DNA from: an uncultured Saprospiraceae bacterium
Lineage (GTDB): Bacteria; Bacteroidota; Bacteroidia; Chitinophagales; Saprospiraceae
Direction of reading: 5' to 3'
Length of the DNA stretch: 64,000 nucleotides
Assembly (NCBI GenBank): GCA_937961455.1
Contig: CALGNN010000087.1
Coordinates: 1-64,000 of the forward strand
The translations under genes and the position numbers were made by a program. This document shows, one piece after another, positions 51,832 through 63,583 of the stretch (its first letter is position 1; every line of letters starts with the position of its first letter). Below the pieces are notes generated by a model. That model saw only the letters and a program-made list of their open reading frames with translations. It did not search any database and was not told where the DNA came from.

Positions 51832-53691
51832 ATGACAGAACATTTTACATGGAAGCACTCTTCAGAAAACTATGAAACTCCTATATCAAAGGAGATCATT
51901 AGTGCAATTCATAATGGTTCAGCATATTTAAAGGAACATAACACCGCGCAACTCACTATTAGTGGTTGGTACCTCAAAGATGAAAACTACAAAGGCAGCC
52001 TTTCAGATTTAGGCATTGCAAGAGCAAATAAAATAAAAAAACTATTCCTTGACAAAGGTGTCCTTGCACAGCAAATCCTAGTTACATCTAAAATCAAAGC
52101 TGAAAATTTAGCAAAGGATAATCTCTTGACACATGGCGTAGATTTTTCATTTAATCAAGACGCCCCGACAGACACAATGAAAGCACTTTTGTTTGTCCAA
52201 ACAGAAACAAGCATGGCAAAAAGCAGCTCGAAAAAACAAAAAGAAATGGCCTTAAGTACAGACAAGAAAGACAGTCTTGAAAAAAACCCTATGGCTAAGA
52301 AAGTAAAACCTAAGAAAAAAAGGAGATGGGTTCTACCCGTACTCATTTTGGCCATTGGAGCGATGGTAGCTGCAGCCTACTTCCAATCAAAAAATAAAAA
52401 AAGTGGAACAGAGGTAGAATTAGCAGAAGCTGAACTACGTAAAATTCATGAGACTGTTTCTGCAAGTGGAAAAATTTTTCCTATCCAAGAAGTTAAAATT
52501 TCGTCAGATGTATCAGGTGAGATCATTGATCTTTATGTAAAAGAAGGTGACTCAGTAAGAGCAGGACAAATCCTTGTAAGAATTGATTCAGAAGTGTATG
52601 CTTCGGCAGTAGAAAGAGGCAATGCTTCTGTCGCAGGATCTCAATCTAGACTGGAACAAGCCAGAGCGAGTGCCACCAGCAGTGAAGCTAATATCTCCAC
52701 ACTGAGAACACAATTGGATCAAGCTAAAAATGTTTTAAATAGATCAAAAAAATTATTTGAAGAAGGGGTAATTGCTGAAGCAGAATATGAAAATGCGCAA
52801 GCTGAGGTGAATCGATTAGAAGCTAGTATCCAAGCTTCTATTGCTACAGCCGCCTCTGCTAATGCAAGTATTAAATCTGCTCAGTCGGATGTGCAAAGCG
52901 CGCAAGCTTCATTAAAAGAGCTGCGAACCAATCTCAGCAGAACAACCATCAAAGCACCAAGTAGTGGTGTGATATCTGTTTTAAATGTGGAACAAGGTGA
53001 GCGTGTAGTAGGAACCGCACAAATGACCGGAACAGAAATGATGCGAATAGCTAATATGAATACTATGGAGGTGCAGGTTGAAGTAAGTGAGAATGATATA
53101 CTAAGAGTCTCTTTAGCAGATAGTGTATCAGTTGATGTTGATGCCTATCTCGATAGAAGATTTTCAGGTGTTGTAAGTGAAATTGCTAACTCTGCTGTCA
53201 ATACAGGCACAGGTGCCTCATTGACTTCAGATGAAGTCACCAATTTCATTGTTACTATTATTATCAATCCAGATAGTTACAGAGATATTATTGATGCTGG
53301 TAAAATCCCATTTAGACCAGGAATGTCTGCCTCAGTTGATATCAACACAGAAACTAAAGAATGCATAACTGTGCCTATTCAAGCAGTTACAACCAGAGAT
53401 AAAGAAGCCTTCAATAAAGCAAAAAAATCCAAAAAGAAAGTTGACCTAGATGATTTGGATGAAGAGGACTTGGCTGAGGTTGTATTCATCAAACAAGCTG
53501 ATACTGTATCGATGGTCAAAGTAGTCACAGGTATTCAAGATGACGAATTTATTGAAGTTCAAGAAGGCATCAAGGAGGGTGATGTGGTTGTATCAGGGCC
53601 TTACTCTGTCGTAAGTAGAAAACTAGAAGAAGGAGAAGAAGTCTCTGAAAAAGACGACAAAGAGGAAGAAACAGATGAAGATGACAGCTAA
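51832..53691 (+). CDS. HlyD-family membrane-fusion (periplasmic adaptor) protein with an extended N-terminal cytoplasmic region
   Basis: The polybasic anchor region (MAKKVKPKKKRRWVLPVLILAIGAMV) is followed by biotinyl-lipoyl, long coiled-coil and beta-barrel regions and an acidic tail. About 150 aa precede the TM anchor in the same frame. Confidence 0.7.
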   Translation: MTEHFTWKHSSENYETPISKEIISAIHNGSAYLKEHNTAQLTISGWYLKDENYKGSLSDLGIARANKIKKLFLDKGVLAQQILVTSKIKAENLAKDNLLTHGVDFSFNQDAPTDTMKALLFVQTETSMAKSSSKKQKEMALSTDKKDSLEKNPMAKKVKPKKKRRWVLPVLILAIGAMVAAAYFQSKNKKSGTEVELAEAELRKIHETVSASGKIFPIQEVKISSDVSGEIIDLYVKEGDSVRAGQILVRIDSEVYASAVERGNASVAGSQSRLEQARASATSSEANISTLRTQLDQAKNVLNRSKKLFEEGVIAEAEYENAQAEVNRLEASIQASIATAASANASIKSAQSDVQSAQASLKELRTNLSRTTIKAPSSGVISVLNVEQGERVVGTAQMTGTEMMRIANMNTMEVQVEVSENDILRVSLADSVSVDVDAYLDRRFSGVVSEIANSAVNTGTGASLTSDEVTNFIVTIIINPDSYRDIIDAGKIPFRPGMSASVDINTETKECITVPIQAVTTRDKEAFNKAKKSKKKVDLDDLDEEDLAEVVFIKQADTVSMVKVVTGIQDDEFIEVQEGIKEGDVVVSGPYSVVSRKLEEGEEVSEKDDKEEETDEDDS

Positions 53692-54292
53692 TGCATCTCA
53701 TGCAATTATCACTTTCATCAAGAATCCTGTTTTAGGTAAGGTCAAAACCAGACTCGCAAAAACCATAGGAGATGAGGCTGCTCTGGCTGCTTATAAGCAG
53801 TTATTGAATCATACGAGATCCGTCGTAATTCAATCTGAAGCTAAGGCCTATCTTTTTTATGATCAACAAATCCAAAAGGATGATTTTTTGGAAAAAGACT
53901 TCCACAAAAAATTACAACATCCAGGAGATTTAGGCGCACGTATCAATCACGCTTTTAATGAAGTATTTCAAAACAATCATACCAAAGTATTGATTATTGG
54001 AAGTGATTGCCCTGATATCAATCCTGAGATTATATCTGAAGCTTTTGCCTCTTTGGATGAACACGATTTTTGCATAGGACCGACTGAAGATCAAGGTTAC
54101 TACTTATTGGGAATGAAAGAAATGCAATCATTTCCCTTTGAGGGCATCAGTTGGAGTACCGAAAAAGTCCTTTCTCAGACTAAGGACAAAATCAAGGGTC
54201 AAAATAAAACCTGCGCTATTCTTAAAGAATTATATGATGTTGACTTTGAGAAAGAATGGAAGCGTTCTCACTTATATAGAAAGGTGAAATAA
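53675..54292 (+). CDS. DUF2064 / TIGR04282-like glycosyltransferase-fold protein
   Basis: AIITFIKNPVLGKVKTRLA and VLIIGSDCPD match the DUF2064 family. Overlaps the HlyD gene end by 17 nt. Confidence 0.5.
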   Translation: MKMTANASHAIITFIKNPVLGKVKTRLAKTIGDEAALAAYKQLLNHTRSVVIQSEAKAYLFYDQQIQKDDFLEKDFHKKLQHPGDLGARINHAFNEVFQNNHTKVLIIGSDCPDINPEIISEAFASLDEHDFCIGPTEDQGYYLLGMKEMQSFPFEGISWSTEKVLSQTKDKIKGQNKTCAILKELYDVDFEKEWKRSHLYRKVK

Positions 54293-54364: not shown

Positions 54365-54871
54365 TTGAACACTTTTGAATACAATCGTACAGTGCATCAA
54401 TATTCGGACAGACTTTACCGGTATGCCCTTAAATTGACTAGAGATGCAGAATCTTCAAAAGATCTTGTGCAAGAGAGCTTTTTGAAGTTGTGGATGAACA
54501 AAGATAAAGTGAAAGGAGATCATATAAAGCCATTCTTGTTCAGAGTACTTTATAATAAAATGATAGATGATAAGCGGAAAATGGGAAGAATCCAACATGT
54601 AGATGTAATACCAGAAAAGTCCGGTACAAAGAATGTGTTTGGTGAAGATAGAGACATCATCGATAAGGCATTTGCTCAATTAGAGGATAAACAAAGAGCT
54701 ATTATAATGCTGAGAGATTGGGACGGATACAGCTACGATGAAATTGCAAAGATTCTGAATATAAGTTTAAGCAATGTCAAAGTAAACTTATTCAGAGCCA
54801 GGAAGAAAATGAAATCGGTTATCAACGCTTTGGAGCATAACCATAAAAAAGAAAGTTATGAAAATAAATAA
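54365..54871 (+). CDS. RNA polymerase ECF-type sigma-70 factor
   Basis: 168 aa. Sigma-70 region 2 (DLVQESFLKLW) and region 4 HTH (YSYDEIAKILNISLSNVKVNLFRARKKM). Confidence 0.85.
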   Translation: MNTFEYNRTVHQYSDRLYRYALKLTRDAESSKDLVQESFLKLWMNKDKVKGDHIKPFLFRVLYNKMIDDKRKMGRIQHVDVIPEKSGTKNVFGEDRDIIDKAFAQLEDKQRAIIMLRDWDGYSYDEIAKILNISLSNVKVNLFRARKKMKSVINALEHNHKKESYENK

Positions 54872-55778
54872 GGTCAACTACGAAAATTTTGTCATCGACT
54901 ACCTTGAAGGTAGTTTGAGCCCTGATCTTAAAGCAGAATTTGATAGCTTTCTACAAGTTAACCCAAATGTATACGAAGAAATCAAATTGTATTTATCTGC
55001 CCCCGTATTAGCAGAACCAAATGAAACTGTATTTGCTGAAAAAGACCTCTTGAAAAGAAGGGTCATCTCCTATCGATGGCTAGGTAGCCTGGCTGCTGCG
55101 GTAGCTGTTCTTTTGATAGGGTCTTTTTTCTTTTTTAACGGTACAGATAATCAAGTTAATGTGGCAAGTATTCCAGATACAGTTAAGGAGACTCCTGCTC
55201 ATGAAAATACCATCTTGCAAAAAAACAGCAATCAGATACGTCCAGTTAATCCTTCTACTACTGTTGAAAACAAAGATATAGCAGCACTTGAAAATAAAGA
55301 TGCCACTATTAAGAAAAATGTTTTGGACATGGAAAAACCATCGCTCAAAGTACTTGAAGAAAATGCACCAATTTTAGAAGAAGGATTTGAAGTGAACGAA
55401 AACAGTAATCAACTTAATGCGTATCAACTTGCTTCAACTGATACTTATCAGCCAGCAAAGAAAGAGCAAAATTTTTCTACGCAAACAAAAAAGGCAGTCC
55501 GTGAAAGTCTTAATATCGAAGACATCAAAGCGCTTCCATTTGAAACTGTAGCTACCATTGAAAATACTCATGTGATCTATGTGCCCAATGCTAATTATGC
55601 ATTCAATGTGGAAGCAAAAGAGACAACAAAGAACAACAAGATTATAGATTTATTTATGACAAAGGCTTATGATGATGTGGACCTTAAGGAAGCCATAGTT
55701 GCAAATAATCTAGATCGATTGAATATATCAAAGGATAAGATTAGAGAAATGATTTTACCTGAATCCATTCTAAATTAA
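54858..55778 (+). CDS. Putative anti-sigma factor (single-pass membrane protein)
   Basis: Overlaps the sigma gene end by 14 nt. The N-terminal ~60-aa cytoplasmic helix region precedes one TM (WLGSLAAAVAVLLIGSFFFF) and a periplasmic tail. Confidence 0.5.
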   Translation: MKINKVNYENFVIDYLEGSLSPDLKAEFDSFLQVNPNVYEEIKLYLSAPVLAEPNETVFAEKDLLKRRVISYRWLGSLAAAVAVLLIGSFFFFNGTDNQVNVASIPDTVKETPAHENTILQKNSNQIRPVNPSTTVENKDIAALENKDATIKKNVLDMEKPSLKVLEENAPILEEGFEVNENSNQLNAYQLASTDTYQPAKKEQNFSTQTKKAVRESLNIEDIKALPFETVATIENTHVIYVPNANYAFNVEAKETTKNNKIIDLFMTKAYDDVDLKEAIVANNLDRLNISKDKIREMILPESILN

Positions 55779-55790
55779 AAGATTACCAAA

Positions 55791-56672
55791 ATGAAAAATA
55801 TTACCAAATTATTAAGTCTGCTTATCATGCTATTCATGTGCCAGACCCTGCAAGCCCAAAAAGATACCATTATCGTCAAAACTAAAAATGACACAATCCT
55901 CACTATCAAGGTGGATAAGGATAAAGACAATGTAGACATCGAAATCTTAGATGATGACGATGATGAAGAATACGACCACGATGAAGACTGGGATGAAGAC
56001 TGGGATGATGATGACGATGATGATAAAAAAAGCAGAGCAAAGATCAGACTTGGAATGCTAGACATAGGAATTAGTGCATATCAAACTGAAGAGACGGGTT
56101 TTAACATGCCTTCAGAATTGGAATACATGGAGCAAAAATTCATTAATTCTACACACGTAGGATGGCATGTAGTTAATCTCAAGTTACCTTTAGCAGCGAA
56201 AGGAAAACCTGTGCTTTTCGGAATATCTACAGGACTGGTTGCAAACTTTAGTAAGTATAGTTTTGAAAATGACTTTAGATTGTCAACAGAAGCAGCAAGA
56301 TTTGAAGATGCCGTTTCTTTCACTGAAGAATCATTTGATAAGAATAGGTTGTCAGCTGTGTATGCTGCGGTACCAGTCTTACTAGAGTTTAATAGCAATC
56401 CAGCAAAGTCATCTAAGTCATTTAACTTATCAGCTGGATATGTTCACAACTTCTTATTGACTGCCAACCACAAGCTGAAAAATAATGACATTGGGAAAGT
56501 GAAAGTTAAAAACAATTTTCACCTGAGAAAAAATTACGGCATGTTGGAAGGAAGAATAGGATATGGCCCACTTAACTTTTATGTACAATATGGACTGGAC
56601 AACATGTTTCAAGATAATGAAGGACCGGAATTAAGACCGATTAATTTCGGAGTCAATATTATTCCGCGATAG
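55791..56672 (+). CDS. Outer-membrane beta-barrel protein with an acidic Asp/Glu-rich tract
   Basis: Signal peptide. DDDDDEEYDHDEDWDEDWDDDDDDD low-complexity tract, then alternating amphipathic beta strands ending in an aromatic-rich C-terminus. It is the third gene of the sigma/anti-sigma unit. Confidence 0.5.
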   Translation: MKNITKLLSLLIMLFMCQTLQAQKDTIIVKTKNDTILTIKVDKDKDNVDIEILDDDDDEEYDHDEDWDEDWDDDDDDDKKSRAKIRLGMLDIGISAYQTEETGFNMPSELEYMEQKFINSTHVGWHVVNLKLPLAAKGKPVLFGISTGLVANFSKYSFENDFRLSTEAARFEDAVSFTEESFDKNRLSAVYAAVPVLLEFNSNPAKSSKSFNLSAGYVHNFLLTANHKLKNNDIGKVKVKNNFHLRKNYGMLEGRIGYGPLNFYVQYGLDNMFQDNEGPELRPINFGVNIIPR

Positions 56673-56695
56673 TTACATTTTTAAATACATCTAAG

Positions 56696-56726
56696 ACCTG
56701 TCAGTTCTTGCTGGCAGGTTTTTTTA
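56696..56726 (+). terminator. Intrinsic terminator after the beta-barrel gene
   Basis: Stem ACCTGTCAG / CTGGCAGGT (one G-U pair) with a TTCTTG loop, followed by TTTTTTTATTT. Confidence 0.6.
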
Positions 56727-57734
56727 TTTGCCTTCTGTATAAATATAGGCTCTTAAATCTTCTAGCTGACGTTCCGACATTCTGTCGACCGTATAGTGTG
56801 GCATGTAGCTTCGTTTTCCATATAATGGTTGCGTTCCATATCTGGCTACTTGATACACTGATCTTCTATTGTACTTTGGAAAATTCTTCTTCAAATAATT
56901 TAGGCTCAATTTAGATTCATCTAATTGCAAAAAAGAAAATTTCCCATTTTCATGGCAATGTAGGCAGCTATGATCATAGATCAATTCGCCTCTATATGCA
57001 TTACCAGTGAGATCTAAACTTCTATTTTCTGGAGGATCTACGAAGGTAGCTGGCGAAGCGATACTATACTTTGATTGAATGAGATTTGCCGCTGCTTTTT
57101 TATCATCAATGGATTTTGAATCAAAAGCATTATCCACATTTTGAAGTTCTTGTGCACTTAGGTCAAGATCCTTTATTTTCAGATCGATCGTATTGAGATA
57201 TGCAACTACTGATTCCATCTCCCAACTTTTCAATTTTCTTCCTTGCGCACATTCCGTTGCACAAAGCTGAATTGCTGACCTCAAATCATTTCGAGCATCA
57301 TCTACCAAGTCACCATATTTTTTCACGTAGTCATCATTGTAGTAGTGCGTTCTATTGACCACACCATACAATGTAGTGGCTTGCAAAAATGGAAGATCAT
57401 TTTCCACAGCATAGGCTAAACGGTCTTCTGGATTTGGCGAAGAAAGCACAGGATCTTCCTTAACCAAATTGTGGCAAGCTACACAGGTAAAATGTTTACT
57501 TTGCTTTTTGACCTTTCTTCCACTTAAAGTTTCACCATACTTTACAATCTCCTCTCCTATTTCAACAGAGACTTTATTTTTATCCAATAAGGGAAGATTA
57601 TGAGGATCAACATCAAATTGTTTTAAAACCTCTGAGACTTTTCGTTCTTCTAGATCTCTGTAATTTTCATTATCGAATAAACCAGGTGCGATACTGGTCA
57701 ATAAAACAATGCAAAACATGATCAAATACTTCAT
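56724..57734 (-). CDS. Di-heme c-type cytochrome (secreted)
   Basis: Signal peptide. Two CXXCH motifs (CVACH, CLHCH). Each is followed by a class-I cytochrome-like distal Met/helix segment (ESVVAYL; MPHYT...LSERQLEDLRAYI). Confidence 0.7.
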   Translation of the reverse strand: MKYLIMFCIVLLTSIAPGLFDNENYRDLEERKVSEVLKQFDVDPHNLPLLDKNKVSVEIGEEIVKYGETLSGRKVKKQSKHFTCVACHNLVKEDPVLSSPNPEDRLAYAVENDLPFLQATTLYGVVNRTHYYNDDYVKKYGDLVDDARNDLRSAIQLCATECAQGRKLKSWEMESVVAYLNTIDLKIKDLDLSAQELQNVDNAFDSKSIDDKKAAANLIQSKYSIASPATFVDPPENRSLDLTGNAYRGELIYDHSCLHCHENGKFSFLQLDESKLSLNYLKKNFPKYNRRSVYQVARYGTQPLYGKRSYMPHYTVDRMSERQLEDLRAYIYTEGK

Positions 57735-58600
57735 ATATTAAAAAGTCTTGATATAGTAAATCCCATTCTAAATTGGCCGTCAAACCAATTGCTGGTGGTA
57801 TTAGGAATATAATCCGTTTCTATAATTGCTTGTGAATTGGTAAAATTTAATTGAAAAATATGTCCACCACCTGTTTCAAATTCAAAGCCCAATCCTAATG
57901 AAGGATGGTACCCATTTTCTTCTGTTCGCAATGCAGAAAAAGGATAGTTGAGATCAATGATTAATCCCAACCATTTATTTACATTGATTCTACTTGCAAA
58001 ACCTGCACTTATAATTCCATTTTCATCGTTTTCATTCACCAAGTTTCTATGTGTATAAGATCCATGAATTTGCAAAGAAAAATTGCTAGAAAATCGTTTT
58101 GCCAAAATAATTTGTGAATGGTAAGACATTCTATGAATGGATTCAGGAAAACTATTAAGTAAATCAGTATTGGTAGATTTTGACATAGTCGATCCTGAAG
58201 CTAATAGTAATAAGGTCATATCAATTCCATCATCCGTATTGGCACCTACTAATTGATACTTGGCAAAGCCATTGACTAATTGCTTCAAAGGACCCACTCC
58301 CTTCGTTCTGTTTAATCCAATCATAAATTTATCACTGATGCCATACTCAGCTCCTATCATTACATCTGCTACATTTTCTAGGCCATAAAAAGTTGGCCAG
58401 CCTCCATTTGTGCCTAATAAGTCACCAAAACGATGGGCAATTCTAATATCCAAATTACCAGCTTTAAGTGTTTCACTCGAATGTGTATTAATGACACGGG
58501 TATCCTTAAATGTTTGACCATAGGTTGCACTCACAAAAAATAGGAGTAACATTAAGACACAAATAATTGGATAAAATTTATTTCTATTCTGCATAATCAT
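57731..58600 (-). CDS. DUF5777-like outer-membrane beta-barrel protein
   Basis: 289 aa. Signal peptide and alternating amphipathic beta strands. The stop overlaps the downstream cytochrome start (ATGA), and the start overlaps the upstream small cytochrome gene by 17 nt. Confidence 0.5.
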   Translation of the reverse strand: MIMQNRNKFYPIICVLMLLLFFVSATYGQTFKDTRVINTHSSETLKAGNLDIRIAHRFGDLLGTNGGWPTFYGLENVADVMIGAEYGISDKFMIGLNRTKGVGPLKQLVNGFAKYQLVGANTDDGIDMTLLLLASGSTMSKSTNTDLLNSFPESIHRMSYHSQIILAKRFSSNFSLQIHGSYTHRNLVNENDENGIISAGFASRINVNKWLGLIIDLNYPFSALRTEENGYHPSLGLGFEFETGGGHIFQLNFTNSQAIIETDYIPNTTSNWFDGQFRMGFTISRLFNI

Positions 58601-58949
58601 TTTCTATCCAACATTTAATGATGTTTAATTCTTCTTCGGTTAACATAGTAGGACCTGTAGCATATTCAGGCGGCATATTTTGTTGGGTAACTACTCGATT
58701 CCCAAATTTTGCTTGATTCAACATAGGCTCCATGCTCGTATAGCTGGTAAAATCACCACTAGCAAAACCAGATACGTGACATCCTGTATAGGAACAATTC
58801 GTTTCAATAATGGCTTTTGCTTGATTGGTATAAGTTACTGGAGTATCACATACCAAAGGATCAACCATCACTTCGAGTTTGTCAAAACTACAGGAGGCTA
58901 AGCTTGCTAATAAGACTATATATATGGGTAAAAAATTCTTATAATTCAT
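58584..58949 (-). CDS. Small lipoprotein with a CX4CH (CSYTGCH) heme-like motif and a class-I cytochrome c-like C-terminus
   Basis: 121 aa. Lipobox LLASLASC, CSYTGCH, and NMPPEYATGPTMLTEEELNIIKCWIENDY resembling the Met-ligand loop plus C-terminal helix of small c-type cytochromes. Confidence 0.5.
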   Translation of the reverse strand: MNYKNFLPIYIVLLASLASCSFDKLEVMVDPLVCDTPVTYTNQAKAIIETNCSYTGCHVSGFASGDFTSYTSMEPMLNQAKFGNRVVTQQNMPPEYATGPTMLTEEELNIIKCWIENDYAE

Positions 58950-59031
58950 ATTGAGCTTGAAAATAAAAATAAATGAAGAAACAATTTCAGCATTTCTTAT
59001 GTTATTTTCGTGTTATAAAAATTAAAACAGC

Positions 59032-59445
59032 ATGTATCCACCAGAATTAGTTATCCCTAGAGTAAAAGATCTGACAGATTTCGGATTTAACTCCCTTAAT
59101 AATGCAGAAGAAGTAACCACTGCACTTAGTAATAACGAGGGAACGTCCTTTGTCGTTGTCAATTCAATTTGTGGCTGTGCTGCAGCTCATGCACGTCCAG
59201 GTGCAAAAAGAGCATTGTTAAATGATAAGAGACCAGAGAACTTATACACCGTATTTGCTGGTGTGCAAAGAGACGCTACTGATAAAGTAAGAGAGTTTAT
59301 GCTACCTTATCCACCTTCTTCTCCTTCAATGGCATTATTTAAAAATGGCGAATTGGTATTCGTACTAGAAAGAAGAGAAATTGAAGGCAGCAACGATGAG
59401 ATGATTGCTGCTAAACTTAAGGCCGCATTTGACGAGCACTGTTAA
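59032..59445 (+). CDS. Bacilliredoxin BrxA/BrxB (DUF1094/YphP-YqiW family)
   Basis: 137 aa. CGC active-site motif (SICGCAAAHARP) in a thioredoxin-like context (TSFVVVNS). Confidence 0.7.
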   Translation: MYPPELVIPRVKDLTDFGFNSLNNAEEVTTALSNNEGTSFVVVNSICGCAAAHARPGAKRALLNDKRPENLYTVFAGVQRDATDKVREFMLPYPPSSPSMALFKNGELVFVLERREIEGSNDEMIAAKLKAAFDEHC

Positions 59446-60090
59446 TCAAGGAGCTAGTCTCTCAATTATCCATGTTCCATCTTTCTGAGTATATCTGAAT
59501 CGATCATGCAATCGGCTTCTTCTGCCCTGCCAGAATTCGAATGTTGAAATAATGATTCTGTATCCTCCCCAATGATCTGGAGCAGGAATATTTTCTTCAT
59601 CTTTAAATCGCGTTTCCATCTCTTCCATTTTTGATTCTAAAACTCCCCTAGAATCAATATTAGATGATTGATCAGACGCCCAAGCTCCTAATTGAGATTT
59701 TCTTGGTCTGGTAGCAAAGTACTTATTTGATTGTTCACGACTCACTTTTTCTGCAAGGCCACTTATTCGAACCTGCGTTTGCATCTCTTTCCATAAAAAT
59801 ACTGCAGATACTTTCGGGTCATGAGCGATATCTTTCGCTTTATCACTGGTATAATTGGTATAAAAGACAAAAGCATCTTTTTCGATTTCTTTTAGAAGGA
59901 CAATCCTGGTTTGTGGATATCCTTCTTCAGAAATGGTAGAGAGTGCCATAGCATTTGGCTCATGGACCTTTTCTTCAACGGCAATTTGTAAATAACTTTT
60001 AAATTGTTCAAAAGGATCTACATGCAAGTCTGATCTATTTAAACTAGACCTTTCATACTGTTCCCTAAATTGATGTAATTCTTTATTCAC
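59446..60090 (-). CDS. pdxH: Pyridoxamine 5'-phosphate oxidase
   Basis: 214 aa. FMN-binding PNPOx motifs (MALSTISEEGYPQTRIVLLK, RLHDRFRY). Convergent with and abutting the brx gene. Confidence 0.85.
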   Translation of the reverse strand: MNKELHQFREQYERSSLNRSDLHVDPFEQFKSYLQIAVEEKVHEPNAMALSTISEEGYPQTRIVLLKEIEKDAFVFYTNYTSDKAKDIAHDPKVSAVFLWKEMQTQVRISGLAEKVSREQSNKYFATRPRKSQLGAWASDQSSNIDSRGVLESKMEEMETRFKDEENIPAPDHWGGYRIIISTFEFWQGRRSRLHDRFRYTQKDGTWIIERLAP

Positions 60091-63000
60091 TTATTACTTG
60101 TGTTGAGGCTGTATCTACATATTCTTCAGTCTTTGGATTCCTCCAATAATAAACAACACGTTGGACTCTGTAAAACAACCAATACATTACAGGCACAATA
60201 ACCAGTGTAAGGAAAGTCGCAAAGACCAATCCATATATAACGGTCCAAGCCATCGGACCCCAAAATTCGGCATTATCTCCTCCCTGAAAATATTGGGGAT
60301 CTAATTCAGTAACCAATGTAAAAAAGTTAATATTGATTCCCATTGCCAAAGGAATTAATCCTAAGACCGTTGTAATTGCAGTTAATAAAACCGGTCTTAA
60401 ACGTGTCGATCCTGCTTTGATAATTGCTTTCTTTACATCATGCGTGGTCAACCTCATCATATTAGAGATGCCTAAGGATTCCCTTTTATTCTTTATCAAT
60501 AAATTGATATAATCCACCAATACGATGGCGTTGTTTACAACAATTCCAGCCAATGAAATCACTCCAATACCCGTAAATACAATAACTACATTTCTACCTG
60601 TAAAATAGTATCCTAATAATACTCCGATAATACTGAATACAACAGACAGGATAATGATAAAAGGAGAAACGATAGAGTTAAATTGAGAAACTAATATGAT
60701 GAAAATCAAAAATACCGCAATCAACAAAGCACTGGTAAGAAAAGCTAATTCTTCAGCCTGTGCTTGTTGCTCACCCGTAAAACTGTAAGTCACCCCTGCA
60801 GGAAATTTAAAATTTTCAATAGCCCCTTTTATATCAGCCACAACTTCATTCGCATTGTATCCCTCCAAGACATTTGAATAAACCGTAATCATCTTCTTGA
60901 GATTCTTTCTTTTGATTGAGCTGTAGGTAGTATTGTAATCTATTTCTGCAACTGCAGAAATTGGAACTTGCACAATCCTTCCATTAGCTGGATTCCTAAA
61001 AGTGACCCGTTGATTCAATAACTGTGTAACTGAGTTTCTATATTTTGGATCAAGTCTTACGGTGATGGGATATTCATCCTCCCCTACTTTAAATTTAGAT
61101 ACCTCCTGACCAAAGACAGATGTACGAATCGCATTCGCAATACTGTATGTGGATAATTCATATCTTCTTGCCGCCTCACGATTGATATTGACCAGCATCT
61201 CTGGTTTTCCCAATTTCACATCAGCCTGCAATTCTTCATAGCCTTCTACACCCTCCGTCTTCACATGCTTAATTAATTCATTACTTAATATGGCTAATTC
61301 ATTAATATCATCACCTGTGATCTCAATATTAATGGGCTTCCCTGTAGGAGGACCCACAGCATTTTGATCAACAATAATTTTAACACCGGGATATCCGACT
61401 AGTAATTCTCTTAGATCGTTCATCACTTTTTTCGTTGAGATCGTTCCTCTATCTTCTGGAGGGACAAACTCAATGGTTAATCTCCCTTTATTAGGTGTAA
61501 CTCCTGGTTCAGGTGGGCTATTAGGATCTGAAGTATTTTCTCCTATCTGGGACAGGACAGACACAACAGCTGATTTTGATTTTTCAAGTTCCTCAAATAC
61601 ACGTGCTTCTAAGTCCTTCATGATTCTATTCGTAGCCTCTATGTCTTTGCCCATAGGCAATTCAACAAAAGCATTCACGTAGATTGGGTCAGTGTTTGGG
61701 AAAAAATCTGTTTTTGGAGGGCTGGTAGAAATTAAAAAACCAGATCCTATTAACAAGAAAATAGTTCCTACAAGGAAGAAAATGGGCGATACCTTATACA
61801 ATGCAAAACCTACAAATTTTTGATATGCACGTTCTAAAGCTGGCAAAATTTTACCTTGAAAGAAAAAAGAAGCTGGACGTAAAAAGAAAATATTTAGTAA
61901 TGCGATAAAGGCGGCAAAGGCAAATATATTCCTAGCCCAAAAGACTTCTTGTGTATGAAAGGCAAAGGCGATCAATCCCATAATCACGGCACCAATCAAG
62001 ACATTACGAATTTTCCTATTGCGGAGCTTTTTATCATCCACTCGTTCATCCACTTTCATAAACCGAGCAGTAAATACTGGATTAATCACTAAGGCTACGA
62101 ATAAGGAAGAACTCAATACGATGATAAGTGTAATAGGTAAATATTTAAAGAACTGCCCAAAAATTCCTGGCCAAAATGCTAGAGGTAAAAAAGCGGCAAG
62201 TGTGGTTGCTGTAGAGGCAATAATCGGCAGTGCCACTTCTCCAGCTCCATACTTTGCGGCATCGGTTCCAGAATAGCCTTCTTGCATATAGCGATAAATA
62301 TTTTCGACGACTACAATTCCATTGTCAACCAGAAGTCCAAGTGCAAGGATTAAAGCAAAAAGCACTACGATATTTAAGGTAACTCCCGTAATATATAGAA
62401 TTAAGATTCCCATTAACATCGAAAGAGGAATGGCAAGACCTACAAACAAGGAGTTCCTGATTCCCAAGAAAAACATCAAGACAAGAACCACTAAAATCAC
62501 CCCAGAAATGATGGAGTTTTCAAGATTATCTACATCTCTCTCCGTATTTATCGATTGATCATTAAACAAAGAAACGGCTAAACCTTCTGGGAAGACATTC
62601 TTCTTAGCCAATCGTACTTCCTCTTTTATTGAGGCTGCCGCAGCCAATAGATTTTCTCCCTTCCGCTTAATGATATCGAGAGATATTACGGGGAAGCCAT
62701 CCATTCTTGAGATGCTCGATCGGTCTTGATAAGAATAACTAGCTGAAGCGACATCCCTAAGATAGATTTGCCTTTGGTTTTCAGATTTTACAATGAGGTT
62801 TTCTATTTCTACCACATTATCAAACTCACCAATTACACGAATGGCTCTTCTAAAATCATTATTTACAAGTTCCCCACCAGACATTGATATATTCTCACTT
62901 CTTATCGCATTGGCAATATCGTCATAAGTAATTTGCAAGGCTTGCATTCTTGACAAGTCACAATTGATTTTAATCTCTCTTTCAAGAGCTCCTTTTATTT

Positions 63001-63583
63001 CTGCTTTGGATACTTCATTTACGGTTTCAATTTTGTCTTTAAGATACTCAGCGAATGATCTGAGTTCATCCATATTATATTCCCCTGAAATATTCACCGT
63101 CATGATGGGAATTTCAGAGGTATTAATCTCCAGTACTTCAGGGTCGGATGTGAGATCATCGGGTAATTCTGATTTAGCTTTGTCTACCGCATCTTTTACT
63201 TTACGCACAACATCGTCCATATCCATATCAGAATTAAACTCAGCTGTAATCACAGAGAAATCCTGCATCGAAGTTGATTGGATATCTTTAATTCCAACCA
63301 TGGCTTGTAGTTCCTTCTCAATAGGTCTGGTAACGAGATTTTCGATATCTGAGGCAGAGTTTCCGAAGTAAGGTGTATTTACAAAAACTGTTGGAAAAGA
63401 AGCATCGGGAAATTGCTCTTTGGGCATATCTTGGTAACCCTGCAATCCAAAGAGTAATATCATAAAAGTTAAGATGAAAACGCTTGTAGCATTATCTACT
63501 GCCAAGGTTGTCAAACCAAACTTCCTTAATTTAGTTTTGTCTATCTTATCGCTCATTGGAATCTGTTGAGGGTACAATATCAA
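60083..63583 (-). CDS. Efflux RND transporter permease subunit (AcrB/CusA superfamily)
   Basis: 1166 aa. 12-TM RND topology with two large periplasmic loops and conserved TM4 acidic region. The start is possibly MSDKIDK at ~63556. Confidence 0.9.
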   Translation of the reverse strand: MILYPQQIPMSDKIDKTKLRKFGLTTLAVDNATSVFILTFMILLFGLQGYQDMPKEQFPDASFPTVFVNTPYFGNSASDIENLVTRPIEKELQAMVGIKDIQSTSMQDFSVITAEFNSDMDMDDVVRKVKDAVDKAKSELPDDLTSDPEVLEINTSEIPIMTVNISGEYNMDELRSFAEYLKDKIETVNEVSKAEIKGALEREIKINCDLSRMQALQITYDDIANAIRSENISMSGGELVNNDFRRAIRVIGEFDNVVEIENLIVKSENQRQIYLRDVASASYSYQDRSSISRMDGFPVISLDIIKRKGENLLAAAASIKEEVRLAKKNVFPEGLAVSLFNDQSINTERDVDNLENSIISGVILVVLVLMFFLGIRNSLFVGLAIPLSMLMGILILYITGVTLNIVVLFALILALGLLVDNGIVVVENIYRYMQEGYSGTDAAKYGAGEVALPIIASTATTLAAFLPLAFWPGIFGQFFKYLPITLIIVLSSSLFVALVINPVFTARFMKVDERVDDKKLRNRKIRNVLIGAVIMGLIAFAFHTQEVFWARNIFAFAAFIALLNIFFLRPASFFFQGKILPALERAYQKFVGFALYKVSPIFFLVGTIFLLIGSGFLISTSPPKTDFFPNTDPIYVNAFVELPMGKDIEATNRIMKDLEARVFEELEKSKSAVVSVLSQIGENTSDPNSPPEPGVTPNKGRLTIEFVPPEDRGTISTKKVMNDLRELLVGYPGVKIIVDQNAVGPPTGKPINIEITGDDINELAILSNELIKHVKTEGVEGYEELQADVKLGKPEMLVNINREAARRYELSTYSIANAIRTSVFGQEVSKFKVGEDEYPITVRLDPKYRNSVTQLLNQRVTFRNPANGRIVQVPISAVAEIDYNTTYSSIKRKNLKKMITVYSNVLEGYNANEVVADIKGAIENFKFPAGVTYSFTGEQQAQAEELAFLTSALLIAVFLIFIILVSQFNSIVSPFIIILSVVFSIIGVLLGYYFTGRNVVIVFTGIGVISLAGIVVNNAIVLVDYINLLIKNKRESLGISNMMRLTTHDVKKAIIKAGSTRLRPVLLTAITTVLGLIPLAMGININFFTLVTELDPQYFQGGDNAEFWGPMAWTVIYGLVFATFLTLVIVPVMYWLFYRVQRVVYYWRNPKTEEYVDTASTQVISE

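Follow-up and report, generated by a model that had tools for sequence, protein, structure and literature searches.

A conserved gene trio of a DUF5777 outer-membrane barrel and two cytochrome-c-like proteins as a possible envelope redox module of Bacteroidota

Analysis of a 64,000-nucleotide stretch of DNA from an uncultured Saprospiraceae bacterium (hereafter the window) revealed a three-gene unit in which an outer-membrane beta-barrel of the Pfam family DUF5777 (B) is encoded together with a small cytochrome-c-like lipoprotein (S) and a di-haem cytochrome c (D). We propose, with a probability of about 0.42, that these proteins constitute a Bacteroidota-specific envelope redox module arranged around the small barrel, with its chemistry on the periplasmic side. 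The S-B-D module is widespread in Bacteroidota, and our literature search retrieved neither a known function nor any experiment or publication for the S, B or D families, and nothing relevant on PSCyt1, bacterial Reeler-domain haem proteins or Bacteroidota porin-cytochromes. The original prediction for this locus, which interpreted it as a self-contained porin-cytochrome redox module, is partly supported by our results. The open reading frame listing and the sequence itself place all three genes on the minus strand, with the following features in and around them.

58584..58949, minus strand: S, a 121-aa lipoprotein resembling a mono-haem cytochrome c (PSCyt1-like) with a CX4CH motif; from the open reading frame, the lipobox LASC and invariant residues
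58776..58796, minus strand: CSYTGCH codons, putative CX4CH haem-attachment motif, S residues 52-58; read from the sequence
58668..58676, minus strand: MPP codons, S residues 92-94; from conservation and a match to the PSCyt1/class-I Met loop
57731..58600, minus strand: B, a 289-aa DUF5777 12-stranded outer-membrane beta-barrel; from Pfam and AlphaFold2
56724..57734, minus strand: D, a 336-aa di-haem cytochrome c; its N-terminal haem domain is novel and its C-terminal domain is c6-like
57471..57485, minus strand: CVACH codons, haem 1 of D, residues 84-88; read from the sequence
57261..57263, minus strand: Cys158 codon of D, in the haem-1 domain; invariant in homologues
56952..56966, minus strand: CLHCH codons, haem 2 of D, residues 257-261; read from the sequence
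56693..56722, no strand assigned: terminator-like hairpin between convergent gene ends; a stem of 13 pairs closing a loop of 4 nt, with its T-run on the plus strand
58950..59031, no strand assigned: 82-bp AT-rich divergent intergenic region, presumed to contain promoters for both S-B-D and the bacilliredoxin gene
59032..59445, plus strand: bacilliredoxin (BrxA/B family) gene, divergent from S; from Pfam/NCBIfam

The predicted overlaps were confirmed by sequence reading: S and B overlap by 17 nt, with the TAG stop codon of S inside ATGATTATGCAGAATAG, and B and D share the 4 nt ATGA. Large homologue families and invariant motif residues indicate that S, B and D are real genes rather than chance open reading frames.

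The lipobox of S is LASC, with Cys20 as the lipidated residue, and in an alignment of 75 sequences C52, C57, H58, M92, P93 and W114 are invariant while P94 is at least 90% conserved, which bears out the predicted cytochrome-like CX4CH lipoprotein. A word-index search with S gave only 3 relatives, reflecting the sensitivity limit of that method; an exhaustive profile search gave 4157 cluster representatives at E <= 1e-3. About 90% of the family has the CX4CH spacing, and variants have CX2, CX3, CX5 or CX7. In tandem relatives a single alignment column carries CX2CH, CX3CH or CX4CH within one protein, sister repeats of single proteins range from CX2CH to CX5CH, the CX4CH column of the S family aligns with the canonical CXXCH of sister repeats, and Pfam PSCyt1 and Cytochrome_CBB3 match repeats of the tandem proteins found by the S profile, CX4CH repeats included. 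S itself has no Pfam or NCBIfam match at E <= 1, and its top PDB profile match is the mono-haem cytochrome PccH (E 0.022). With PSCyt1 and PccH it shares an N-terminal helix, a haem motif followed after some 35 residues by MPP, and at the C-terminus an amphipathic helix that ends in W-I-x-x-G; it differs in the shift of its first Cys by two residues, in a family spacing that ranges from CX2 to CX7, and in being a stand-alone lipoprotein with an additional conserved Cys pair (C34/C35 and C113). Together, these comparisons support the assignment of S as a cytochrome-c-like lipoprotein in which CX4CH takes the haem-motif position, within a family related to PSCyt1-type cytochrome c. The conservation pattern suggests that haem would be covalently attached at CX4CH, with Met92 as the probable distal ligand. 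The idea that S was copied from one of the D domains was rejected, as hhalign shows no relationship.

The location of S bears directly on the predicted architecture, in which the barrel was sandwiched between cytochromes inside and outside the outer membrane. Surface export of lipoproteins in Bacteroidota needs at minimum the signal K-(D/E)2, KD by itself being a weak one (PMC5080379). The sequence that follows lipidation is C-S-F-D-K-L-E in the window and C-[TS]-K-D-K-L in the family consensus, so that S was rejected as a surface lipoprotein under a rule that has not been validated in Saprospiraceae. S lacks this surface-export signal, and the barrel therefore probably does not lie between inside and outside cytochromes, which counts against the sandwich.

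B matches DUF5777 (PF19089) with E 8.8e-73 and covers the model from position 1 to its last position, 247; the score of 245 bits lies well above the gathering cutoff of 23.1. It has no other Pfam match and belongs to a family of more than 2100 homologues. Its AlphaFold2 model (pLDDT 86.8) is a 12-stranded outer-membrane barrel with long loops and short periplasmic turns, so both the family and the membrane barrel predicted for the middle gene were upheld. DUF5777 had also been described as lacking an established function, and in agreement we found no paper mentioning DUF5777 or PF19089, and hence no published function. Fold comparison places the model nearest to KdgM, NanC and FapF, with COG4313 channels and the NalP translocator also similar. 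While B shares the monomeric 12-stranded fold of KdgM and NanC, its sequence identity to these five groups is only 7-12% and it has no Pfam KdgM match. A strand-parity estimate puts the net charge of the B lumen near zero, in contrast to the basic, acidic-sugar-selective lumen of KdgM and NanC; this gives no hint of ion or anion selectivity, and the idea of an anion-selective channel was dropped. The genomic partners of B are cytochromes rather than the sugar- or amyloid-handling proteins of KdgM, NanC and FapF.

Conservation within B also sets it apart from KdgM and NanC. Its N-terminal segment TFKDTRVINxHSxETL is highly conserved, and its surface loops are conserved to a degree unusual for an outer-membrane protein. 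In a comparison of 204 barrels H56 and H247 never vary, H156 is retained in 94%, and no Cys or Met is conserved. W68, F71, W272 and several Gly residues that face the lumen are likewise invariant or nearly so. The N-terminal segment, including DTRVINT, has a pLDDT of 91-95 and therefore seems to be part of the fold, probably as a plug, and a TonB-box-like reading of DTRVINT was set aside on the same grounds. A bis-His haem site in B is not supported: the topology puts H56 and H247 at the two opposite ends, and 11 of 61 sequences have Gln in place of H40. B may be open to a solute, or its conserved loops and N-terminal segment may plug it.

D has more than 1280 homologues and carries the two CXXCH motifs that were predicted. 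In haem 1 (CVACH), C84, C87 and H88 are invariant; in haem 2 (CLHCH), C257, C260, H261, M311 and P312 are invariant in 61 sequences, with Met311-Pro312 providing the probable distal ligand. The C-terminal domain resembles cytochrome c6, and for the N-terminal haem domain we found no solved relative. The latter domain has no conserved Met and contains Cys158, which is kept without exception in 61 close homologues and in 12 divergent ones, among them paralogues from which C162 has disappeared, and is a candidate distal ligand or active-site residue. D is possibly anchored by an N-terminal helix. The catalytic haem of the thiosulfate dehydrogenase TsdA is His/Cys-ligated, and TsdA was the top full-length structural match of D by two methods, at a level that was not significant. 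Likenesses include two cytochrome-c-like domains in one chain, a Met at the second haem, and an N-terminal haem domain with an invariant Cys and no conserved Met. Assignment of D as TsdA was rejected for want of a family match or significant sequence or structural similarity, and assignment as CCP/MauG because D has neither the CCP_MauG Pfam match nor the fold, and no significant structural match. Of the earlier suggestion that D is an enzyme with the barrel as its substrate channel, the CCP/MauG form is not supported, but an enzyme-like di-haem D supplied through the barrel may still hold.

Conservation of the unit was assessed in those related loci, 38 after removal of redundancy, that have 1.6 kb or more of flank on each side. 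All three genes are present in 32 of these, in the orders SBD (27 loci), DBS (2), and SSBD, SBDD and SDB (1 each), while the incomplete loci comprise BD (3), SB (1), S'B (1) and B alone (1). The occurrence of five gene orders indicates that the linkage is functional rather than inherited gene order, whereas the occasional absence of S or D indicates that neither cytochrome is strictly required beside B. The trio was also found in Portibacter lacus, in a 2.9-Mb contig, and with reshuffled order in Crocinitomicaceae. A metagenome scan with the B alignment yielded 80 loci and a scan of a genome collection with a single B sequence yielded 4. Named carriers comprise Saprospiraceae, Crocinitomicaceae and Flavobacteriales along with unclassified Bacteroidota, and the sequences, numbering in the thousands, derive from marine, lake and engineered-system metagenomes. 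The hosts are apparently for the most part aerobic heterotroph-type Bacteroidota, and we know of no iron or sulfur oxidisers among such groups.

The region flanking the unit had been described as insulating it, with a terminator on one side and a divergent promoter region on the other. The conserved trio speaks for a self-contained unit; the 13-bp hairpin lies between convergent stop codons with its T-run on the plus strand, which makes it a clean terminator for the convergent plus-strand gene and only plausibly a bidirectional one that would also serve S-B-D. On the other side, the bacilliredoxin gene product matches Pfam Disulph_isomer (E 2.5e-55) and NCBIfam YphP_YqiW (E 1.1e-53), and this gene is adjacent and divergent in 49 of 87 related loci, with other neighbours variable. 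The link is missing from loci with rearranged S/B/D order and may therefore reflect clade synteny, so we regard the gene as a conserved neighbour that may or may not belong to the unit. Inspection of 48 distinct intergenic regions between the bacilliredoxin gene and S showed no common palindrome or conserved operator.

The analysis shows the folds, the motifs and the conserved gene linkage; haem attachment, the location of S, the openness of B, the direction of electron flow and the substrate are inferred. In the mechanism that we favour, B, with the size of KdgM and NanC, would be the hub of the module and would offer a small solute or ion a narrow, specific way through or a place to bind. 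S would be a mono-haem cytochrome c lipoprotein tethered beside B on the periplasmic side, and D would be a periplasmic cytochrome joining an enzyme-like, atypical haem-1 domain to a c6-like His/Met electron-transfer haem. Redox chemistry would take place on the periplasmic side and act on whatever passes or binds B, and the three c-type haems could relay electrons between the redox site and the aerobic respiratory chain. The likelier direction would be the oxidation of a reductant, since the c6-like domain is of a high-potential type and the hosts are apparently aerobic. Such logic would correspond to a split Cyc2/Cyc1 system, or to a substrate channel with a di-haem oxidoreductase and a dedicated cytochrome partner, rather than to a wire of the Mtr type.

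Cyc1 is a di-haem c4-type cytochrome. According to two reports, Cyc1 is the periplasmic cytochrome c partner of Cyc2 in iron-oxidising bacteria, and Cyc2 is modelled with a single-haem domain at the periplasmic mouth of a small barrel, such that Fe2+ enters the pore and the substrate must do so (PMC8406198, PMC5566968). The S-B-D unit resembles this system in combining a small barrel in the outer membrane with a single-haem c-type domain and with a cytochrome c partner in the periplasm. It differs in that S and B are separate polypeptides, S being a lipoprotein, whereas Cyc2 fuses an N-terminal CXXCH domain to its barrel; the B barrel is 12-stranded and KdgM-like while that of Cyc2 is 16-stranded and OprP-like, the motif of S is CX4CH rather than CXXCH, and the hosts of S-B-D are not known iron oxidisers. 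No S-B fusion occurs among the best 120 B matches or the best 150 S matches, and no Cyc2-like family appears among the Pfam and NCBIfam matches of S, B and D. Of the predicted porin-cytochrome logic, a Cyc2-like version may still hold, with a single haem where the narrow barrel opens to the periplasm and a di-haem partner; the Mtr/Pio version is not supported.

We give almost no credence to a conduit of the Mtr/Pio type, in which the barrel would sheath a cytochrome and a chain of haems would link periplasmic and surface cytochromes through the outer membrane. As in MtrCAB, PioAB and MtoAB, an outer-membrane barrel gene clusters with genes for c-type cytochromes, of which one, like MtrC, is a lipoprotein, and the linkage is conserved. 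Those systems, however, use a barrel of about 26 strands that sheathes a decahaem cytochrome and sets haems across the membrane, with 26 strands given for MtrB in one report (PMC8406198), and the 12 strands of B are too few for this role. The whole unit holds three haem motifs, two CXXCH in D and one CX4CH in S, which are insufficient to cross the membrane, and multihaem families (Cytochrome_C7, OmcA/MtrC) gave only sub-threshold Pfam and NCBIfam matches with E of at least 0.02. Such a conduit is largely refuted by strand number and haem count, and the probably periplasm-facing S, lacking the export signal, departs from it as well. A much smaller relay across the outer membrane, in which B itself would carry a cofactor, metal or redox-active side chains and couple S to extracellular acceptors or donors, with surface haem proteins in some lineages, is also a long shot. 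It would account for the invariant H56 and H247, the conserved H156, the lumen Gly, W68, F71 and W272, and the unusually conserved surface loops. In four rearranged loci S or B is adjoined by a CXXCH-containing protein that also has choice-of-anchor V and T9SS sorting domains, which fits such a relay, but the window holds no such protein, B has no conserved Cys or Met, the positions of the histidines and the variable H40 do not make a bis-His haem site evident, and to our knowledge a cofactor-bearing 12-stranded barrel has no precedent. Only a slim chance attaches to the strongest form of this idea, that B, a single-haem lipoprotein positioned where the barrel opens to the periplasm and, in some lineages, T9SS-anchored surface haem proteins together form the smallest known device for redox coupling across the outer membrane; if they do, abundant aerobic aquatic Bacteroidota could exchange electrons with extracellular iron, oxygen species or other solutes. 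The thought was prompted by His156 alongside the invariant His56/His247, by a lumen lined with glycines, and by the conservation of the surface loops and of the N-terminal plug.

Alternatively, B may not be a channel for the substrate of the cytochromes. It could act as an anchor, as an enzyme of the outer membrane or in the handling of hydrophobic or isoprenoid compounds, with the cytochromes supplying or removing electrons at the inner face of the outer membrane. The set of invariant residues in B (His, Arg, Asn and Glu) is reminiscent of catalytic sites, and a gene of the YceI-like polyisoprenoid-binding family lies directly beside B in L005, L006, L083 and L087. We consider this unlikely: the YceI link is restricted to these few distant loci and absent from the window, B shows no sequence relation to any outer-membrane enzyme family, and we know of no outer-membrane enzyme that requires c-type cytochromes. 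A defence against peroxide or thiol stress, with a peroxidase-like D (one catalytic and one His/Met haem) reduced by S and co-regulated with bacilliredoxin, would explain the frequent divergent bacilliredoxin gene among otherwise varying neighbours, and D does show the layout of an atypical haem plus a His/Met haem known from bacterial di-haem peroxidases. Nevertheless, D has no CCP_MauG match, bacilliredoxin is cytoplasmic and its link is lost from the rearranged loci, and peroxide reduction offers no role for a dedicated outer-membrane barrel, all of which leaves stress defence very improbable.

Should the S-B-D unit prove to be an outer-membrane redox device, it would represent an unrecognised route by which 'ordinary' aerobic heterotrophs oxidise or reduce a small external substrate, for which iron, sulfur compounds and reactive oxygen species are candidates, and a minimal cytochrome-barrel architecture distinct from both Mtr and Cyc2. 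As a separate observation, the probable cell-surface haem protein in some rearranged loci points outward, a counterpoint to chemistry confined to the periplasm. For the study of c-type haem attachment, the S family is also a ready-made set of natural variants, in which a single cytochrome fold appears to tolerate spacings from CX2CH to CX7CH. Because Portibacter lacus is a cultured species that carries the trio, the function of the module is directly testable.

The three overlapping minus-strand genes encode a 121-aa lipoprotein (S), a 289-aa DUF5777 barrel (B) and a 336-aa di-haem protein (D). Open reading frames and sequence reading place them exactly as the original prediction did, with S and B overlapping by 17 nt (the stop codon of S lies within ATGATTATGCAGAATAG) and B and D by ATGA.

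Features of the unit and its surroundings in the window
58949..58584, minus strand: S gene, ORF of 121 aa
58600..57731, minus strand: B gene, ORF of 289 aa
57734..56724, minus strand: D gene, ORF of 336 aa
56693-56722: 13-bp hairpin between convergent gene ends, T-run on the plus strand
59032-59445, plus strand: bacilliredoxin gene (BrxA/B family, cytoplasmic; Pfam Disulph_isomer)
53675-54292: DUF2064 gene

The hairpin had been taken as a terminator insulating the unit; because its T-run is on the plus strand, it would act cleanly for the convergent gene and only plausibly for the S-B-D transcript. Between S and the divergent bacilliredoxin gene upstream lies an AT-rich gap of 82 bp. Convergent to D on the plus strand (54365-56672) lie genes for an ECF sigma factor (Sigma70_r2/r4), for a possible anti-sigma factor of 306 aa in which no domain is confidently assigned, and for a 293-aa OMP_b-brl_2-like protein containing an extended Asp/Glu run (DDDDDEEYDHDEDWDEDWDDDDDDD); their adjacency to the trio is not kept in other loci. 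The minus strand after the bacilliredoxin gene (59446-63583) carries genes for PNPOx, the pyridoxamine 5'-phosphate oxidase, and for an RND-type efflux transporter of 1166 aa.

The trio recurs on a 2.9-Mb metagenomic contig and in Portibacter lacus, where the bacilliredoxin gene is again divergent and DUF2064 is a neighbour. Fetched loci (87) were scanned with HMMs built from our own alignments, and barrels were collapsed into clusters at ≥80% identity and counted where at least 1.6 kb was present on each side (n=38).

Gene orders among the 38 clusters (SS and DD, duplicated copies; S', divergent copy)
SBD: 27/38
SSBD: 1/38
SBDD: 1/38
SDB: 1/38
DBS: 2/38
BD: 3/38
SB: 1/38
S'B: 1/38
B alone: 1/38

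All three genes were thus found in five orders, bearing out the proposal that the triad is kept as a unit in related genomes, and because the trio stays together across five different arrangements the pattern argues for functional coupling of S, B and D, with B as the hub. No natural S-B fusion was seen among the best 120 matches for B and the best 150 for S. Other variants of S form two groups: tandem gene pairs (for example L026 3469-4305 and L076 4070-4844, in each locus's own coordinates) and two-domain fusions of 217-228 aa upstream of B (L055 4310-4996, L059 489-1151 and L069 4340-4993). The bacilliredoxin gene is divergently adjacent to S-B-D or B-D in 49 of the 87 loci (L001 7137-7550 and 48 others) and is absent where the order is rearranged; this adjacency could reflect co-regulation or clade synteny only. 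More variable neighbours across the 87 loci are DUF2064 (13 loci) and RND pump genes (10-12). In four loci of rearranged order, S or B is adjoined by a protein of 270-290 aa with an NCBIfam choice-of-anchor V domain (E 1e-22 to 5e-27; Reeler matches weakly); it also has a signal peptide, one TGAPGE-x-C-x-x-CH motif and, at the C-terminus, a T9SS sorting domain. This is a probable cell-surface haem protein, of which the window holds no homologue. In four distant loci the gene directly beside the DUF5777 barrel is YceI-like (polyisoprenoid-binding family), in the orders B-YceI or S-YceI-B.

Neighbours of the barrel or of S in related loci
L005 4323-5159, minus strand: choice-of-anchor V protein
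L006 2230-3066, minus strand: choice-of-anchor V protein
L070 2726-3538, plus strand: choice-of-anchor V protein
L082 6250-7122, plus strand: choice-of-anchor V protein
L005 6437-6949; L006 4344-4856; L087 4462-5004; L083 2-406: YceI-like gene

S carries a LASC lipobox (Cys20), CSYTGCH at residues 52-58 and MPP at 92-94, and matched nothing in Pfam or NCBIfam. A word-index search returned three relatives only; when 1.8 billion cluster representatives were searched exhaustively with a profile, 4157 fell within E<=1e-3, of which 1126 within E<=1e-10, and most are lipoproteins of ~120 aa. Across a 75-sequence alignment C52, C57, H58, M92, P93 and W114 are invariant, with conservation of at least 90% at C20 of the lipobox, C34, C113, G65, P94 and L103. 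Tandem relatives contain two to six S-type domains per protein, in which CX2CH, CX3CH, CX4CH or CX5CH share one alignment column within a single polypeptide, MP(P) follows each haem motif by ~40 residues, and the repeats, CX4CH ones included, are matched by Pfam PSCyt1 and Cytochrome_CBB3. Against the PDB, the profile of S matched best to PccH, a mono-haem cytochrome (E 0.022), and to the haem domain at the C-terminus of hydrazine synthase alpha. On the strength of these motifs and matches, S reads as a divergent PSCyt1/class-I-like mono-haem cytochrome c with its first Cys displaced, in line with the lipoprotein cytochrome proposed; haem attachment itself is something we infer from sequence. 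A disulfide probably joins the extra conserved Cys pair (C34/C35 and C113).

D has the two predicted CXXCH motifs, CVACH (residues 84-88) and CLHCH (257-261). Only its C-terminal third matches Pfam cytochrome c models (Cytochrome_CBB3, E 3.5e-8; Cytochrom_C, E 1.1e-5); a profile built from the family picks up cytochrome c6 at residues 248-340 (E 7e-4), and the N-terminal haem domain draws no match in that comparison. Invariant residues in 61 close homologues include C84, C87, H88, C158, C162, C257, C260, H261, M311 and P312. Cys158, but not Cys162, remains invariant in 12 divergent homologues, and neither set has a conserved Met in the haem-1 domain. The invariant residues, the missing haem-1 Met and the c6 match would thus pair a haem site of atypical, enzyme-like character with an ordinary electron-transfer haem, and Cys158 is a candidate for the distal ligand or for a residue of the active site. 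Second-copy paralogues in the SBDD loci (L073 7357-8445 and L078 3547-4629) have lost Cys162 and the haem 2 ligand Met311 and retain Cys158 and both CXXCH motifs. At its N-terminus D has a stretch of 17 uncharged residues with no obvious cleavage site, which may serve either as signal peptide or to anchor the protein in a membrane.

The full-length Pfam DUF5777 model aligns to B (E 8.8e-73), as predicted, and B has no sequence relatives in the PDB. Conservation peaks in the mature N-terminal segment (TFKDTRVINxHSxETL, pLDDT above 90), loop 1 (GGWxTFYGLEN) and loop 6 (ETDYIPNTxSNWxDGxFR). Among 204 sequences H56 and H247 are invariant and H156 is 94% conserved; H40 is replaced by Gln in 11 of 61. 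Invariant Gly is frequent at positions facing the lumen, where the net charge is about zero; we tentatively read this as loops and N-terminus packing into the lumen. The mature N-terminus (TFKDTRVINTHS) is the most conserved stretch of B; its residues 33-39, DTRVINT (window 58483-58503), superficially resemble a TonB box (D-T-x-V-V-x-A). The high pLDDT suggests that this segment is a structured plug and not a TonB box.

The reading with most support is that S-B-D forms a redox module on the periplasmic side, coupled to a narrow barrel in the outer membrane. B would pass or bind a small solute or ion, S would be tethered beside it, D would supply one haem of catalytic type and one c6-like haem for relay, and the three haems of S and D would link the site to the respiratory chain, with openness of B, S-B contact, substrate and direction of flow all inferred. 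We place high confidence in the claims on structure and linkage and low confidence in those on function. The logic resembles either Cyc2 with its periplasmic cytochrome partner Cyc1 (PMC8406198, PMC5566968), or a substrate channel with a di-haem oxidoreductase and a cytochrome partner. The original prediction also placed the barrel between two haem proteins. The S-family consensus after the lipid-modified Cys is C-[TS]-K-D-K-L, whereas experiments have defined the Bacteroidetes signal for surface export as K-(D/E)2 with net negative charge, KD alone being poor (PMC5080379); S therefore probably faces the periplasm, which tells against that sandwich.

An Mtr-type wire through the outer membrane, the MtrAB-like conduit first proposed, is rejected: B has twelve predicted strands against 26 in MtrB and 16 in Cyc2 (PMC8406198), which would rule out a cytochrome-sheathing role, and the haems are too few. 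A minimal trans-membrane relay using B itself is kept alive by its invariant His and aromatic residues and by the CXXCH-bearing choice-of-anchor V/T9SS protein next to S or B in the four rearranged loci. LpxR- and COG4313-like folds and the four YceI neighbours hint that B is instead an enzyme or hydrophobic-ligand handler, and the conserved bacilliredoxin neighbour suggests a peroxide or thiol-stress role for the redox module.

The pairing of a cytochrome with an outer-membrane barrel is already known as a general idea. New as families or variants are the PSCyt1-like cytochrome with CX4CH, the 12-stranded barrel partnered with cytochromes, and the di-haem protein with a novel haem-1 domain. 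Our searches found no paper on DUF5777 or PF19089, in line with the earlier statement that the family has no established function, and nothing relevant on Bacteroidota porin-cytochromes. Within the S family, 99 of 111 single-domain members have CX4CH, two CX2CH, one CX3CH, and the remaining nine CX5CH or CX7CH in the same place. Spacings from CX2CH through CX3CH, CX4CH and CX5CH to CX7CH thus occur within one fold family (relatives P0244-P0393; e.g. P0300, P0357, P0287, P0370), which would make it a natural series for the tolerance of c-type haem attachment to Cys spacing.
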